From: Escherichia phage UE-S1
DNA length: 64,000 nucleotides
Direction: 5' to 3' (one strand)
Sequence record: ON568341.1
Part shown: piece by piece, positions 11,232 to 36,879 of the stretch
Numbering within the stretch: position 1 is the stretch's first letter
Layout: every line of letters starts with the position of its first letter
Translations under genes and position numbers: made by a program
The notes under the pieces: model-generated
Database searches by the model: none
Seen by the model: the letters and a program-made list of their open reading frames with translations, nothing else
Told to the model about the DNA's origin: nothing

Positions 11232-11492
11232 ATGACAAACATCCAGAATTTGACGTCTATTATTTTTTATGCTACAGTGGTGATGTATACTATTGTACTT
11301 ATTTTAACAGTTTTTATTTACAAAGATTACAAAAAAGGCTTTATTAATAGCTCAACAATGAAGTTCAATTCTAAATTTGAAGCAATTATATTTTATGTTT
11401 TGACAACATCATATTTGTTGTGTATAATGTTATTAGGGTCATTGATTTATATTTTATATACAACATTATTTGCAATTGGAGCTATTTTATGA
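11232..11492 (+). CDS. small membrane protein
   Basis: Strongly hydrophobic segments; stop overlaps next start (ATGA). Confidence 0.45.
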   Translation: MTNIQNLTSIIFYATVVMYTIVLILTVFIYKDYKKGFINSSTMKFNSKFEAIIFYVLTTSYLLCIMLLGSLIYILYTTLFAIGAIL

Positions 11493-31711: not shown

Positions 31712-32278
31712 ATGGTCAAATCATTACTACCACCACCAAAACGACATAAAATCAAAGAAATGAAAGAACAACGCACATTAAAGATGTACAACAACTTAGT
31801 TAAGTTACTTTGCAAAAGCCCATCACTCAAAGAAGTATTCACAACAGATGATGATCGTAATGCACTTATTGAGATGAAATATATGCTCAGTAAAATGTCC
31901 TTTTACAAATTTGTCAAAGAATACTCAACTGAACCATTCAGTCCTCGTTGGCGAGTCAAACCAAGAGAGTATTTTTTCGGTGGTTCATATACTGATATCA
32001 TTCAAGATACGGTGATAGGCGTAGAGTTCGAGATTGATTATGAGCCTAATGGTGTGGAAAACTGGCAGATTGACAAACATTTACCAAGTGAAGATGAAAT
32101 TTATGTTTATGCAAGAAAACAGACAACCTTCAGTTCAAGAATTGCTCTTAATAATTTAGATTCATTTATTATTTTCTATACACGTGTAGGTGTAGATAAA
32201 ATGGTAACTAAACTCAATGAATTATCATTACAACAAAAACAGATTAATGCATACAAAGACATTACAGATTTATACTAA
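31712..32278 (+). CDS. hypothetical protein, tandem paralogue 1 of 3
   Basis: Shares S.LK....T.DDR..L.E.KY.LSK N-terminal pattern with the next two ORFs. Confidence 0.5.
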   Translation: MVKSLLPPPKRHKIKEMKEQRTLKMYNNLVKLLCKSPSLKEVFTTDDDRNALIEMKYMLSKMSFYKFVKEYSTEPFSPRWRVKPREYFFGGSYTDIIQDTVIGVEFEIDYEPNGVENWQIDKHLPSEDEIYVYARKQTTFSSRIALNNLDSFIIFYTRVGVDKMVTKLNELSLQQKQINAYKDITDLY

Positions 32279-32284
32279 TGAGGA

Positions 32285-32806
32285 TTGGATATGTTTTTTG
32301 GACAGTTAAAAAAACCTAACAGTACTTTAATTTGGCATGAAATCATCTTTAAAATTATATCTAAAAGCTACTCACTAAAAGATATTATCAAAACAGATCA
32401 TGATCGACATGTTCTGTTAGAAGCAAAATATAAATTGAGCAAACACCCGTTACTTTCGTTAATCATTGATTACGTTAATGATTATGAATCCAGTCGTTGG
32501 CAGTGGGAAGACGGAGGTTTATTTCGTGGAAAAACATTCTACGGTGCCGAACGATATGTATTCAGTGATACAGCAAATGATGTTAAGTTTGCTATTAGAA
32601 ACTTTAACTCCAAAGAAAATGATTATCTTGAAAGTGGAGTTAAGGTGTATATAGATAATAATAGCAATGTACTTACATATGACGAATCACTAATTATGTT
32701 ACAAATAATGCGTGGAGTTGAAAGTGTAAGACACAATCTTACTAAGTTGAAAATCCAGCAAAATGATATACATAATAGACAGAAAATTAAGGGTTTATAT
32801 AAATGA
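32285..32806 (+). CDS. hypothetical protein, tandem paralogue 2 of 3
   Basis: YSLKDIIKTDHDRHVLLEAKYKLSK. Confidence 0.5.
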   Translation: MDMFFGQLKKPNSTLIWHEIIFKIISKSYSLKDIIKTDHDRHVLLEAKYKLSKHPLLSLIIDYVNDYESSRWQWEDGGLFRGKTFYGAERYVFSDTANDVKFAIRNFNSKENDYLESGVKVYIDNNSNVLTYDESLIMLQIMRGVESVRHNLTKLKIQQNDIHNRQKIKGLYK

Positions 32807-33312
32807 TTTCATTTTTCAAAAAGAAAGAAAAAGTTGATGAAACTGGATTAGAATCGTTTCTATGGACTCTTATCATTAAAAAAAGTCCATTGATGAAAGA
32901 ATATGCTATCAATGATGCTAATAGAAAAACTATCATTGAATACAAATATGAATTATCAAAATGTGATCCAATTGTTTATCACTTTGCGAAGTACTGTTCT
33001 AACAATTTATCGGATATCACTATTGAACACGAGTCAGTACCAATGAGTTTTCCTTATGGTGATTGGGTAGATACTTTTGATATTTTTGATGGTTCAAATG
33101 GTTTCAGTTTCTTTTACTCGTCAAATAAAGCAAATGTTCGTATTAAAACAGAGATAGGTTGGACACAGCATAGCTCAAATAAAGAAGATTATAATTTACT
33201 AGCTGACGTATACCGAAGTGTGAAGAATTCAAAGGATATTGATGAAAGAATTAAAAAGCAAAATCGTATTTCTTTATCACTTGAAACATACAAGTCAAAG
33301 TATGGTGGTTAA
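32803..33312 (+). CDS. hypothetical protein, tandem paralogue 3 of 3
   Basis: SPLMKEYAINDANRKTIIEYKYELSK. Confidence 0.5.
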   Translation: MISFFKKKEKVDETGLESFLWTLIIKKSPLMKEYAINDANRKTIIEYKYELSKCDPIVYHFAKYCSNNLSDITIEHESVPMSFPYGDWVDTFDIFDGSNGFSFFYSSNKANVRIKTEIGWTQHSSNKEDYNLLADVYRSVKNSKDIDERIKKQNRISLSLETYKSKYGG

Positions 33313-33314
33313 CT

Positions 33315-33716
33315 ATGACTACAGTTGATGATATCTATAGTACTATACGAAATATGAGTACAGATAGAAAAGTATTTGGTGATAAAGAAAAATCTAAGTG
33401 TTATGGTATTGATTCTTTTGATATAATTTCGTATGAGTACAACACGAATGGAAATAGTTCACTGAATATCGTCTGCCCTCGTGACCCAGAAAATAATTTT
33501 ATGTATGTTGAAATTAATAATGATGGGATGTTTTTTACAAAAGTTTTCAAAGGTGGTATTAATTACGAACCTATTGAATGTATGAATGAAGAAACTTTCT
33601 TTCAAGAAGATACAATTATCAATTTAGGTTTTAGTTTTGCGGATTATAAAACATTAGAACATGACTTTAATCGTTATTATAACGGTTTCTTAAAGGAGTT
33701 AACAATTTATCTATGA
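33315..33716 (+). CDS. hypothetical protein
   Basis: ORF in array. Confidence 0.45.
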   Translation: MTTVDDIYSTIRNMSTDRKVFGDKEKSKCYGIDSFDIISYEYNTNGNSSLNIVCPRDPENNFMYVEINNDGMFFTKVFKGGINYEPIECMNEETFFQEDTIINLGFSFADYKTLEHDFNRYYNGFLKELTIYL

Positions 33717-34945
33717 ATAACCAATATGTTGAACAAACAATAGTGAAACACTTGGCTGGGTCACAAGCCTACGGAACCAGTACGCCTGAAAGTGATACTG
33801 ATTATCGTGGTATTTTTCTTGCTAATAAAGAATTTATTCTTACGCCATTCTATAAGGTTAAAGAAGTAGCTGATAAAAATGAAGAAGATACCAAATTCTA
33901 TGAGTTAAATCAGTATTTAAAATTATACACTGAAGCCAACCCTAATATTCTGGAATCACTATGGGTTGAACCAGAACACATTGTAGAAAGTACTGAGATT
34001 TATGACTATCTTCGTTCATTTAACCAAAAACTTCTTAGTTCTAAGATTGCATTTTCATATACTGGATATGCATATAATCAGATTAAGCGTATGACAAATC
34101 ATCACGGTTGGATGGATAAAGAGCGAATTGCTGAAAAACGTTTAAATGAGATTTTAGAAGAACACCCTGTCGATGAGGTTCTTGCGTGGATGTATGATTC
34201 ATTCCCACAATATCTTGTTGAACGTTTAGATACATCTAACTTACATCCATTTAATACTAAAAAGATTGATTTTGAAAAATATATGCGTGATACGTCATTG
34301 CAGTTAGTTTCGAAAAATCCATTAAAGCAATATCATTTTGTAAGATTAGTGCATAACTACACTACTGACAAAATTCTAGATCGTGATTTCAATTTATTGA
34401 ATTTTAATAATGGCTATGAACTAATTCATTACGGAGAAAACATTTTTGCGATTATTAAAAATCCAAATGAAAGCACTATCAACGGTGATGGATCATTGCG
34501 TTATTTTTCTAAAGAGCGTAGTACTGAAGAATTGAAAACTAAACCAGAACTAATTGTCAAATTTAACGAAAAAGAATATCAGGAAAATAGTGAGAATAGA
34601 AAAAGTTATCATAAATGGAAAGAAAATCGTAATGCCAAACGTGCTATTTTAGAATCACAACACGGATACGATTGTAAACATGCTATGCACACAATCCGAC
34701 TTTTGAATAGTGCAGAAGAAGCATTACAAAGTGGAATTATTCAAGTTAAACGACCAGATGCACAAATGTTGATGGATATTCGTAATGGTAAATGGAAGTA
34801 TGAAGAAGTCTTAGAATATTTCGATGATAAAGTACAATACATTCGTGATGTTCTATATAAGAAATCAGTACTTCCCAAAAAACCTAACATCAAGTTAGCA
34901 TCGAAAATTATAATTGATATTCGAGAAATGCAATGGTATAAGTAA
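33713..34945 (+). CDS. pol-beta-superfamily nucleotidyltransferase
   Basis: N-terminal GSQAYGTSTPESDTDYRG matches the NTase-fold signature G[SG]..(9-13)..D.D; 410 aa with uncharacterised C-terminal region. Confidence 0.55.
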   Translation: MNNQYVEQTIVKHLAGSQAYGTSTPESDTDYRGIFLANKEFILTPFYKVKEVADKNEEDTKFYELNQYLKLYTEANPNILESLWVEPEHIVESTEIYDYLRSFNQKLLSSKIAFSYTGYAYNQIKRMTNHHGWMDKERIAEKRLNEILEEHPVDEVLAWMYDSFPQYLVERLDTSNLHPFNTKKIDFEKYMRDTSLQLVSKNPLKQYHFVRLVHNYTTDKILDRDFNLLNFNNGYELIHYGENIFAIIKNPNESTINGDGSLRYFSKERSTEELKTKPELIVKFNEKEYQENSENRKSYHKWKENRNAKRAILESQHGYDCKHAMHTIRLLNSAEEALQSGIIQVKRPDAQMLMDIRNGKWKYEEVLEYFDDKVQYIRDVLYKKSVLPKKPNIKLASKIIIDIREMQWYK

Positions 34946-35007
34946 TATATGGGTGTAATAGTTATAAAAATTCCATTACACACCAAATCACTTCAGTGAT
35001 TTATAAC

Positions 35008-35035
35008 TTGACATTGAAAAATAATTATGTATAAT
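35008..35035 (+). promoter_or_regulatory. sigma70-like promoter
   Basis: TTGACA - 16 nt - TATAAT; -10 abuts the terminator hairpin. Confidence 0.5.
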
Positions 35036-35037
35036 TA

Positions 35038-35065
35038 GAGAACTTCATATGGAGTTCTCTTTTTT
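35038..35065 (+). terminator. intrinsic terminator
   Basis: GAGAACT / AGTTCTC stem then T6. Confidence 0.6.
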
Positions 35066-35079
35066 ATAAGGGTGATAAA

Positions 35080-35481
35080 ATGTTAAATGAACGTATTAAA
35101 AATGCACTATATGTATTGAACCAAGAAGTTAATTCTATTCATAAAAGTACTGAGCGATATAAAGTATTACATGAAATTAGACAAGAATTGGAATCCATTA
35201 ATAAGGGAAAATGGGTTCTTGAACGCGAACGAACTATTGTTGAAAAAGCAATTGCAAAATTCATCTCGGAACGTTATGGTAAAATTTCAGAGGAAGATGT
35301 ACTAATGAACTTACATCTTTCACAAACGGAAGTGATGGAGAAATTTCATTTTGATTCATTAGACTGGTTAGAAATGATCATGGAATTGGAAGAAGAATTC
35401 AATGTAGAAGTAGATTTATATTATGAAAAACAAGAAACCAAACTATATGAACTAGCAGAACACATTAAACTAATGATGTAA
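35080..35481 (+). CDS. acyl-carrier-protein-like protein
   Basis: C-terminal FDSLDWLEMIMELEEEFNVEVD matches the ACP phosphopantetheine-attachment region (DSLD..E..M.LEEEF); ~55-aa N-terminal extension. Confidence 0.55.
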   Translation: MLNERIKNALYVLNQEVNSIHKSTERYKVLHEIRQELESINKGKWVLERERTIVEKAIAKFISERYGKISEEDVLMNLHLSQTEVMEKFHFDSLDWLEMIMELEEEFNVEVDLYYEKQETKLYELAEHIKLMM

Positions 35482-35534
35482 ACATATACCATTATATACT
35501 CTAAATAATATCATCAACCACAGGAGATATTATT

Positions 35535-35909
35535 ATGAGTATACTAGAAATAATAGTTTCAAACATTCTTATTCCATATTGGAAACCAATTTCTTTTGCA
35601 TTATTAATTAGTGGTTCAGCAATTGCGGGTTGGAAAGCTAATACTTATTATACTGGTTATCAAGAAAGTATAGAGCAACAAATAGCCAAAAAAGTTGATA
35701 TAGCACTTGATAAAATGCAACAAGAAAATACAAAAAGCTATCTTGAAACAAAAAAAATTATGGAAGATAATACAAAAGTCATTGAAACAAAGGTTCCTTA
35801 TATAGTAGAACGTGAAGTTTATAAAAATGTTTGTTTAGATGAAGATGGTGTGAAAGTACTGAATGAACTTAAACAAAATTCTAAAGCGGCAAGGAATAAA
35901 TTCAAATGA
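35535..35909 (+). CDS. i-spanin-like protein
   Basis: N-terminal TM helix (ISFALLISGSAIAGW) then charged coiled-coil-like region; overlaps next gene by ATGA. Confidence 0.5.
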   Translation: MSILEIIVSNILIPYWKPISFALLISGSAIAGWKANTYYTGYQESIEQQIAKKVDIALDKMQQENTKSYLETKKIMEDNTKVIETKVPYIVEREVYKNVCLDEDGVKVLNELKQNSKAARNKFK

Positions 35910-36214
35910 AAAAAATGTTAGTACCGTTTATTTCTTTTTTAATTATAAGTGGATGTGCAGAACAAGTAAAAGTACAATCCCCTGCACCAATTAAACAAGA
36001 AATTCTGTTAGAAAGATGTGATGATGACACACCACTACCACAAAAAATTATGATTGACCAAAACGGATTTAAAGGGTATAGTGGGAGTGAAATTCTCAAA
36101 GTTCTTACCCGTTGGGATGCAATCTATAACGAATGTGCATTGAAACATGATGCATTGATCAAAACCATTCGTGATTTACAAGGTAAAGATATTAAAATAA
36201 ATATCAAGGATTAA
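35906..36214 (+). CDS. o-spanin-like lipoprotein
   Basis: Lipobox-like FLIISGC at N-terminus; position immediately after TM/coiled-coil gene. Confidence 0.5.
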   Translation: MKKMLVPFISFLIISGCAEQVKVQSPAPIKQEILLERCDDDTPLPQKIMIDQNGFKGYSGSEILKVLTRWDAIYNECALKHDALIKTIRDLQGKDIKINIKD

Positions 36215-36215
36215 A

Positions 36216-36827
36216 ATGAACAAATATCATGTTTATTATACAACAAAGTTATCCCTTCTTGATGAATTAAATCACCGAAGTACTAAGATGAAACGTTATA
36301 CTTTAAATGGTATTACTTTTCGATATTTCCCACAAAAAGTCCTTACTTTTGTCAAGAATCCAAAATGCGTGGCATGTGGGATTGAAGCCACTGAAGTACG
36401 CATTGAACGTACATTTAGTTCTGATCCAGTTTATGGTAAACCACATTTAAATGTATATGCGGTATGTGGTCTTTATGAAGTGTTGATGACAGTTGATCAC
36501 AACCATCTGGCATCGAAGGGTGGTTGTGATTTAGAGTCAAACTTTAATACTATGTGCTCCAAATGCAATCAACTACGTTCTAATAAAACCGAAACAGTTG
36601 ATGAGTTTCTTGAGAAAGTTAAAGATCGTAATCTTCTCCAAGAACATATGAATAAATTCTTTAACGTACAAAAAAAGAAAAATAACATTGACAAGTCGAA
36701 ACTACTAGAAGAACGTAGGTTACGTCAAGAATTATGGGAAACAGACCATCTATGGCATGTTCGAGAATTTGGTCGTCATATGAAAGCTTTGAAAAAAGAA
36801 CAGAAGAAATTGAATAAACATGATTGA
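36216..36827 (+). CDS. HNH endonuclease
   Basis: VDHNHLASKGGCDLESNFNTMCSKCNQLRSN (HNH core with CxxC); CxxC also upstream (CVAC); strong terminator follows. Confidence 0.7.
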   Translation: MNKYHVYYTTKLSLLDELNHRSTKMKRYTLNGITFRYFPQKVLTFVKNPKCVACGIEATEVRIERTFSSDPVYGKPHLNVYAVCGLYEVLMTVDHNHLASKGGCDLESNFNTMCSKCNQLRSNKTETVDEFLEKVKDRNLLQEHMNKFFNVQKKKNNIDKSKLLEERRLRQELWETDHLWHVREFGRHMKALKKEQKKLNKHD

Positions 36828-36840
36828 TATGATATTATAG

Positions 36841-36868
36841 GGACTTGAGTATTCAAGTCCTTTTTTTT
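36841..36868 (+). terminator. intrinsic terminator
   Basis: GGACTTGA / TCAAGTCC stem then T8. Confidence 0.8.
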
Positions 36869-36879
36869 GGAGAAGATAA

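Follow-up and report, generated by a model that had tools for sequence, protein, structure and literature searches.

Organization and occurrence of the gene

We analyzed the gene at positions 35080–35481 of a 64,000-nucleotide (nt) stretch of DNA from Escherichia phage UE-S1 (ON568341.1), hereafter called the window, which encodes a protein resembling acyl carrier proteins (ACPs) with an N-terminal extension. The 133-amino-acid (aa) product listed among the open reading frames (ORFs) contains FDSLDWLEMIMELEEEFNVEVD. The exact limits of the ORF and its location between a nucleotidyltransferase (NTase) gene and a pair of lysis spanin genes, both given in an original prediction made from the letters of the window alone, were confirmed (Table 1). 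The assignment of the DNA to a T4-like phage in that prediction was wrong. Megablast and tblastn searches placed the source phage in Asteriusvirus, the ~350-kb jumbo coliphages of the 121Q/PBECO4/phAPEC6 type in the RaK2-like supergroup, with ph0011 as its closest relative. The accompanying remark on the rarity of ACPs in T4-like phages is not applicable to this genome, and the gene is, as judged from its distribution, a conserved core gene of the RaK2-like supergroup.

The protein of ph0011 shares 99% aa identity with the window protein and is annotated as 'carrier domain-containing protein'. Other orthologues are annotated as 'acyl carrier protein' (phAPEC6 and vB_Ec-M-J), 'acpP' (Sharanji), and 'D-alanyl carrier protein 1' (fEgEco12), and annotation as ACP goes back to GAP32 and CBB. 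The ACP resemblance is already in the databases, and the gene is an ordinary one for this phage group. A word-indexed search collected 35 clusters of homologues. When 1.84 billion representatives were searched exhaustively with a profile, 57 clusters were obtained at E<=1e-3, of which approximately 20 were full-length N-extended proteins and the rest were ordinary ACPs of 75–100 aa (E ~1e-4). The family spans Asteriusvirus, Alcyoneusvirus (RaK2, K64-1, and Muenster), Eneladusvirus (fHe-Yen9-03/04 and Serratia BF), Mimasvirus (CBB and GAP32), and their uncultured relatives.

Table 1. Positions of the ACP-like gene, its parts, and the surrounding features in the window.
Feature	Positions	Strand	Basis
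RlaP-type NTase, upstream neighbour	33713–34945	+	PF10127, E 3e-16
Sigma-70 consensus promoter-like site, TTGACA-16 nt-TATAAT	35008–35035	+	12/12 match in scan
10-bp hairpin followed by T-run (terminator-like), between the -10 box and the ribosome-binding site	35037–35066	+	
Shine-Dalgarno-like sequence AAGGGTGA	35068–35075	+	4 nt before ATG, read directly from sequence
ORF of N-extended ACP-like protein, 133 aa, PHROG 18343	35080–35481	+	phrog_18343 match, read from sequence
Long amphipathic N-terminal helix, residues 4–48, neutral to basic, isoelectric point (pI) 8.1	35089–35223	+	Model, predicted local distance difference test (pLDDT) score 67–80
Predicted ACP-fold four-helix bundle, residues 53–132, acidic, pI 4.6	35236–35475	+	Model, Foldseek, family profile
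D92-S93-L94-D95-W96 motif	35353–35367	+	S93 codon TCA at 35356–35358; S93 aligns with AcpP Ser36
i-spanin, Rz-like, N-terminal transmembrane segment	35535–35909	+	phrog_1152, E 4e-27; Muenster orthologue annotated i-spanin
o-spanin, lipobox IISGC, 4-nt overlap with i-spanin stop	35906–36214	+	Weak LysC/Rz1 Pfam match; Muenster annotation
HNH endonuclease, last gene of predicted unit	36216–36827	+	phrog_23285, E 9e-126
Second promoter-like site with hairpin/T-run module, closing the unit after the HNH gene	36810–36870	+	Scan

Homology to ACPs and predicted fold

The Pfam model PP-binding (PF00550) matched the window protein with 20.8 bits (E = 4.8e-4), a score equal to the gathering cut-off, and the alignment comprised the 23 residues 91–113. 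The hidden Markov model search that the original prediction had proposed as a check thus gave a borderline score and an alignment confined to this short segment. The ACP families of PHROGs gave E values of 1e-7 and 6e-5. The match to phrog_18343, an unnamed family of RaK2-like jumbo phages, had an E value of 5.4e-40 and aligned residues 2–132 with profile positions 1–137 of 138. In the PDB, phmmer found E. coli AcpP at E ~3e-4 over residues 53–113, and a profile of 35 homologues found 34 sequences at E<=1e-3, all of which were ACPs (best E 4e-7), with the whole ACP domain covered. PF00550 was matched at E<=0.01 by 8 of the 17 members of the wide family. The NCBIfam equivalog models for ACP gave 47–55 bits for the Eneladusvirus and Mimasvirus orthologues, 29 bits for the window protein, 24 bits for 121Q, and no match for RaK2, and all of these scores were below the cut-offs of 66–106 bits. 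The ACP resemblance of the single sequence is therefore statistically real but marginal, whereas the evidence at the level of the family is firm. As judged from these profiles and from the structure model described below, the C-terminal 80 residues are homologous to ACPs.

In the AlphaFold2 model, residues 53–132 formed a helical bundle with pLDDT >90. Foldseek with the model as the query gave ACPs for all of the top 50 matches in the PDB, with target-normalised template modelling (TM) scores of 0.55–0.77, mostly ~0.7. The RaK2-type protein, which has Thr at the site equivalent to Ser93 and has no NCBIfam match, was also modelled as an ACP fold. In the Asteriusvirus and Alcyoneusvirus proteins, the pI was 6.7–9.4 for the N-terminal helix and 4.0–4.8 for the bundle; that of AcpP is 4.05. 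The N-terminal helix contains N3, I6, A9, L10, E16, S23, Y27, and E38 as invariant residues in the 35-cluster alignment, and 8 of the 13 columns that are invariant across genera sit in this helix. A canonical coiled coil was considered for the helix and rejected; the best register had 57% hydrophobic a/d positions, and the helix is amphipathic with no clear coiled coil. The window protein showed no hydrophobic segment, transmembrane segment, or signal peptide and is a soluble, highly charged, helical protein. It had no match to lysis families in Pfam or PHROGs and no match to defence or anti-defence families in PADLOC. The PF00550, PHROG, PDB-profile, and AlphaFold2/Foldseek results bear out the ACP-like domain with an N-terminal extension that the original prediction had described, the extension being the helix of residues 4–48.

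Variation at the attachment site

The position aligned to the phosphopantetheine-attachment residue Ser36 of AcpP was occupied in the 35-cluster alignment by Ser (7), Trp (9), Thr (18), Asn (1), and Arg (1), and in more distant N-extended members it was also Asp, Glu, or Lys. Among the isolates, it was Ser in the window, ph0011, and A4, Trp in 121Q, Sharanji, and fEgEco12, Asn in Turkey5, and Thr in RaK2 and Muenster. This position varies (S, W, T, N, R) even between alleles that are 62–74% identical within one genus. Meanwhile, D92, D95, W96, and F107 were invariant in the 35 Asteriusvirus and Alcyoneusvirus clusters, and this branch carries the signature D-x-[L/W/C]-D-W, in which x is variable. 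We consider that the attachment Ser is most likely dispensable across the family.

The acidic helix II is present in the window protein, where D92, D95, E98, E104, and E105 align to D35, D38, E41, E47, and E48 of E. coli ACP (EcACP). D35, E41, and E47/E48 of EcACP have been described as residues recognized by AcpS and client enzymes (bioRxiv 10.1101/2025.01.28.635281), and these are retained as D92, E98, and E104/E105. Since both Ser93 and the residues recognized by AcpS are present, the window allele may well be phosphopantetheinylated in E. coli; we regard such a modification as incidental to the function of the family.

Selection and evolutionary rate

The reading frame was intact and encoded 129–141 aa in all lineages examined (~46 phage genomes and many metagenomic contigs). 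The ratios of non-synonymous to synonymous substitution rates (dN/dS), calculated by the Nei-Gojobori method, were 0.29 between the window and 121Q and 0.19 between the window and fEgEco12, and the values across the orthologue comparisons (0.19–0.30) were well under 1. Between 121Q and fEgEco12, both of which have Trp at position 93, dN/dS was 0.20, with 49 non-synonymous and 38 synonymous differences. The latter value indicates that purifying selection continues after the loss of Ser, and by the available measures the gene appears to be still functional.

The ACP-like protein was the most diverged member of its block in every comparison. Its identity to the orthologue was 67% in 121Q, 37% in Turkey5, and 30% in RaK2, compared with 88–98%, 52–79%, and 45–74%, respectively, for the neighbouring proteins. 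At comparable dS, its dN/dS was 0.29 versus 0.04–0.13 for the neighbours, and its dN was three to four times theirs. Fast evolution of this kind is typical of proteins at a host interface, and its pattern here would be consistent with such a role.

Search for partner enzymes and association with the virion

In the window, Pfam and PHROG searches of the neighbouring genes (NTase, spanins, HNH, and unknowns) found no phosphopantetheinyl transferase (PPTase), adenylating enzyme, ketosynthase, or acyltransferase. No acyl-handling product or PPTase was named in 126 kb of the ph0011 annotation, in which ~90% of the products read 'hypothetical protein' (the other 220 kb were not screened), or in the locus contexts examined in other genera. 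A tblastn search with E. coli AcpS found no RaK2-like phage at E<=1 and found PPTase genes in other phages; Sfp-type PPTases were not screened.

The virion proteome table of phAPEC6 lists the upstream fibre protein gp314c and does not list the ACP-like gp313c or the spanins. An Erwinia phage ACP was found by mass spectrometry of virion preparations (PMC7760394). We did not adopt a structural role, given that the Erwinia orthologue was found in virion preparations and phAPEC6 gp313c was absent from the virion table. A literature search for functional studies of the family or for a phage 'pseudo-ACP' returned mentions at the level of annotation only.

Gene neighbourhood

The ACP-like gene was located directly upstream of the i-spanin/o-spanin pair in every lineage examined, even where the proteins share 20–30% identity. 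This adjacency to a spanin-like gene has been mentioned, at the level of annotation, for Erwinia phages of Eneladusvirus (PMC7760394). The upstream side is variable. The RlaP NTase gene adjoins the ACP-like gene in the window, ph0011, and fEgEco12, and this adjacency is not conserved elsewhere; one or two tail-fibre genes are inserted between the two in 121Q, phAPEC6, Sharanji, Turkey5, and A4, and three small ORFs lie between them in RaK2, Muenster, CBB, and fHe-Yen9-03. The inserted fibre genes include the 2.8-kb gene of gp314c, a verified virion fibre protein of phAPEC6. Comparison of the junction at 34946–35007 with 121Q, Turkey5, and A4 showed an insertion/deletion of tail-fibre genes that is relevant to host range, and the window, ph0011, and fEgEco12 are without the fibres. 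No link was found between the Ser/Trp allele type and this insertion/deletion.

On the downstream side, the HNH gene follows the spanin pair in Asteriusvirus, Alcyoneusvirus, Eneladusvirus, and metagenomic contigs, and the CBB locus gave no match to it. Such a constant location behind the o-spanin gene is unusual for a free-standing HNH gene, which is normally mobile, and suggests that the endonuclease has been domesticated or has acquired a fixed role.

Expression signals

Perfect sigma-70 consensus sites occurred twice in the 64-kb window, compared with an expected number of 0.14. One precedes the ACP-like gene (Table 1), and the other (TTGACA-N17-TATAAT) is at 11400–11428 on the plus strand and has an inverted repeat, ACAACA..TGTTGT, in its spacer. 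The promoter/hairpin module is kept upstream of the orthologues in 121Q and A4. It is absent upstream of the orthologue in fEgEco12, in which the NTase stop codon is 10 nt from the ATG.

The modules at 35008–35066 and 36810–36870 are alike in that each has a sigma-70-like promoter with a 10-bp hairpin and T-run immediately behind it, and in both of them the predicted transcription start falls within the 5' arm of the stem. Each looks like a combined terminator-and-restart element. The hairpin at 35037–35066 would stop read-through from upstream, and transcripts initiated at the promoter would escape termination because they would begin inside the 5' arm. The scan found no terminator-like site between the ACP-like gene and the spanin genes, and the two modules bracket four genes; we infer from this arrangement that the ACP-like, i-spanin, o-spanin, and HNH genes form a four-gene transcription unit.

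The unit (35080–36827) is mosaic. The dS value of the ACP-like gene was 0.055 to ph0011 and 0.68 to 121Q, and that of the HNH gene showed the opposite affinity, with 0.24 to 121Q and 0.70 to ph0011. These opposite affinities indicate a recombination breakpoint between the two genes.

Comparison with known ACPs

The phage protein is similar to E. coli AcpP and other type II ACPs in its predicted four-helix bundle, in an acidic helix II with equivalents of D35, D38, E41, E47/48, and F50, and, in the window allele, in the DSL motif. It differs from AcpP in the addition of an N-terminal helix of ~45–50 residues, in the replacement of Thr39 by Trp, and in scores below the equivalog cut-offs. Furthermore, the attachment Ser is not conserved among the phage orthologues, and genes for fatty acid synthase, polyketide synthase, and PPTase were not found alongside.

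The orthologues annotated as ACPs in Cronobacter phage GAP32, Pectobacterium phage CBB (CBB_163), Yersinia phage fHe-Yen9-03 (g156), Serratia phage BF, and Erwinia phages pEa_SNUABM_12/47/50 share with the window protein a length of ~135–140 aa, the arrangement of an N-terminal helix followed by an ACP domain, and the location upstream of spanin-like genes (PMC7760394). They differ in having the canonical DSLD[E/Y] motif and stronger matches to PF00550 and the ACP models than the Asteriusvirus/Alcyoneusvirus branch.

The mitochondrial ACP of Plasmodium falciparum lacks phosphopantetheine and is nevertheless essential as a binder of Isd11-Nfs1 (PMC8547962). It is comparable to the phage protein in that an ACP fold has stayed under selection after loss of the cofactor site and serves as a pure binding or stabilizing subunit. 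In the phage family, the fold and the selection are likewise kept without Ser, as seen in the dN/dS of 0.20 between Trp alleles and in the modelled fold of the Thr-type protein. The Plasmodium protein differs in being eukaryotic and organellar, in binding the LYR protein Isd11 with Nfs1, and in having no such N-terminal helix, and the comparison is by analogy only. In E. coli, the apo form of ACP potently inhibits glycerol-3-phosphate acyltransferase; unmodified ACP can thus bind client enzymes competitively and stop growth (PMC3896788). This provides a template for reading the phage protein as a mimic. The E. coli effect is seen when the host overexpresses its own ACP, and binding of the phage protein to PlsB or another client is putative.

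Proposed function

Taken together, the gene is probably, though far from certainly, a degenerate ACP that has become a phosphopantetheine-independent protein-binding module and acts as a mimic or an adaptor. Descent from a genuine ACP is suggested by the Eneladusvirus and Mimasvirus orthologues, which still have DSLD and score 47–55 bits against the ACP models. The simplest history would be that an N-extended genuine ACP was present in a RaK2-like ancestor and that independence from the attachment site arose in the Asteriusvirus/Alcyoneusvirus branch.

The bundle would dock through its acidic helix II (D92, D95, E98, E104/E105, and F107) onto a basic patch of the partner, in the same manner as an ACP on its clients, and the N-terminal helix may provide a second contact or mediate oligomerization. 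Trp96 has been fixed beside the former attachment site, with the attachment residue itself unconstrained. The partner would most likely belong to the class of host ACP-client enzymes, on which the protein would act as an apo-ACP-like mimic; such a partner fits both the fast evolution and the host-type promoter. Alternatively, the partner might be encoded by the phage itself, with the putatively co-transcribed spanins as candidates. The fold, the homology, the Ser variability, the selection, the synteny, and the promoter motif come from the analysis itself; docking by helix II, the partner, and when the gene is expressed are inferred. Binding as a decoy to host ACP partners, one of the two roles suggested in the original prediction, is compatible with all of these observations.

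In its most specific form, the proposal is that the phage produces a cofactor-free mimic of host ACP from a consensus host-type promoter, that the mimic docks through helix II and Trp96 on host ACP clients (e.g., PlsB, LpxA/LpxD, AcpS, SpoT, or MukB), and that it shuts down or redirects envelope lipid synthesis or another ACP-dependent process, the rapid evolution reflecting an arms race. We offer this version tentatively and consider it unlikely.

Several observations weigh against a cofactor-independent module. Ser is kept by the window allele and by the Eneladusvirus and Mimasvirus orthologues with their canonical DSLD[E/Y], and a carrier function is possible in these proteins. The Thr of the RaK2-type proteins could, on chemical grounds, take a phosphoester, although AcpS is not known to use Thr. 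The faster evolution could simply mean that a gene of marginal use is under relaxed constraint. In the model, the placement of the N-terminal helix against the bundle is unreliable, with a predicted TM score of 0.61 and a linker pLDDT of <50. Moreover, the negative results for partner enzymes derive mostly from annotation and from one tblastn search with AcpS.

Alternative explanations

The main rival is a genuine carrier, in which host AcpS would load Ser93 with phosphopantetheine and the holo-protein would bear the acyl or aminoacyl group used in a phage-directed modification, the target of which might be the envelope, a lipoprotein, or some other product of the phage, the Ser-less orthologues having lost or changed this function. 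Such a carrier in a modification pathway was the other role put forward in the original prediction, which had taken non-conservation of the Ser among homologues as evidence against it; the Ser is not conserved, and the proposal is undermined. The retention of DSLD in the window, ph0011, and A4 alleles, together with the acidic residues for AcpS recognition, speaks for a carrier, as do the Eneladusvirus and Mimasvirus orthologues with canonical motifs that pass PF00550. A dedicated ACP that acylates specific proteins would also have a precedent in IacP of the Salmonella type III secretion system (PMC5279801). On the other hand, the Ser varies within one genus in an otherwise invariant motif, and purifying selection goes on in Ser-less lineages. 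Lgt and Lnt draw on phospholipids and not on acyl-ACP for the acylation of lipoproteins. Furthermore, the score of 29 bits is far from the equivalog cut-offs of 66–106, neither a PPTase nor an adenylating enzyme, ketosynthase, or acyltransferase turned up around the gene in the lineages examined, and tblastn detected no AcpS homologue in RaK2-like phages. We therefore regard a carrier function as an unlikely explanation for the family.

The invariable position immediately upstream of the spanin genes, kept among members with 20–30% identity while the upstream genes vary, could instead point to an accessory of the lysis module, i.e., a cytoplasmic regulator or chaperone of the co-transcribed i-spanin/o-spanin pair. 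The bracketing of the four genes by promoter/hairpin modules with no terminator-like site before the spanins in the scan fits this explanation, and the adjacency is already in the literature (PMC7760394). However, the whole neighbourhood is collinear among related phages, and common descent rather than function may explain the adjacency. The annotators of fHe-Yen9-03 placed a separate spanin promoter within the 3'-terminal part of the ACP gene, and spanins act in the periplasm, whereas the ACP-like protein lacks both a transmembrane segment and a signal peptide. We know of no spanin system that requires such a factor, and a lysis accessory is improbable in our view. It is still less plausible, and only barely worth entertaining, that the gene is a decaying, functionless relic of an ACP gene. 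That the protein is the most diverged of its block, that most lineages no longer have the hallmark Ser, and that the ACP model scores fade progressively from 55 bits to none would all be expected of a relic. The intact frame and constant length in the ~46 phage genomes and many metagenomic contigs, the dN/dS of 0.19–0.30, the 13 columns invariant across genera, the confidently predicted fold, and the presence of a predicted strong promoter and a ribosome-binding site are all contrary to it. We also considered whether the protein could be a chaperone in the assembly of the tail fibre whose gene immediately precedes it in 121Q-type phages, because genes for such chaperones commonly lie downstream of the fibre gene and the ACP-like gene directly follows the 2.8-kb fibre gene (virion protein gp314c) in 121Q, phAPEC6, Sharanji, Turkey5, and A4. 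We rejected this role as close to refuted, since the gene is equally present with no preceding fibre in the window, ph0011, fEgEco12, RaK2, Muenster, CBB, fHe-Yen9-03, and metagenomic contigs, and since the S/W allele type does not follow the presence of the fibre.

Implications

To our knowledge, as based on the literature search, the dispensability of Ser across the family, the persistence of selection without Ser, and the conserved D-x-L-D-W signature are new. More immediately, the result corrects a habit of database naming: 'acyl carrier protein', 'acpP', and 'D-alanyl carrier protein' imply a carrier role that most members, with W, T, N, R, D, E, or K in place of the attachment Ser, would be unable to fill. 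ACP is among the most highly connected bacterial proteins. If the protein is a cofactor-independent binding module, an ACP fold and docking helix kept without the cofactor Ser would be a natural probe of ACP-client interfaces and possibly a new route of host takeover aimed at lipid or envelope synthesis. A demonstrated target among host ACP clients would make the finding considerably more interesting. If the carrier explanation is true for the Ser alleles, the prosthetic-group site would have been gained or lost repeatedly within a single phage genus.

Additional observations

Two records of orthologues are over-long. That of Salmonella phage SD-15_S21 (P0008, 192 aa) has a low-complexity C-terminal read-through, and the BFVD entry A0A2Z5HFQ2 comprises 432 aa. 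These are probably sequencing frameshifts or artefacts of gene calling and not real fusions.

In CBB, the orthologue is followed by genes for two spanin-like proteins, CBB_164 and CBB_165, that carry the annotation 'structural protein', presumably because of their detection in virion preparations. Such a label is unexpected for spanins, and membranes carried over into the preparations may account for it.

Upstream of the NTase gene, three tandem ORFs of 188, 173, and 169 aa (31712–33312, plus strand) share the N-terminal motif KSPSLKE..D.DR..L.E.KY.LSK. They appear to be paralogues, with a BLASTP E value of 2e-5 between the first and the third. Similar arrays also precede the NTase gene in RaK2 and Muenster.

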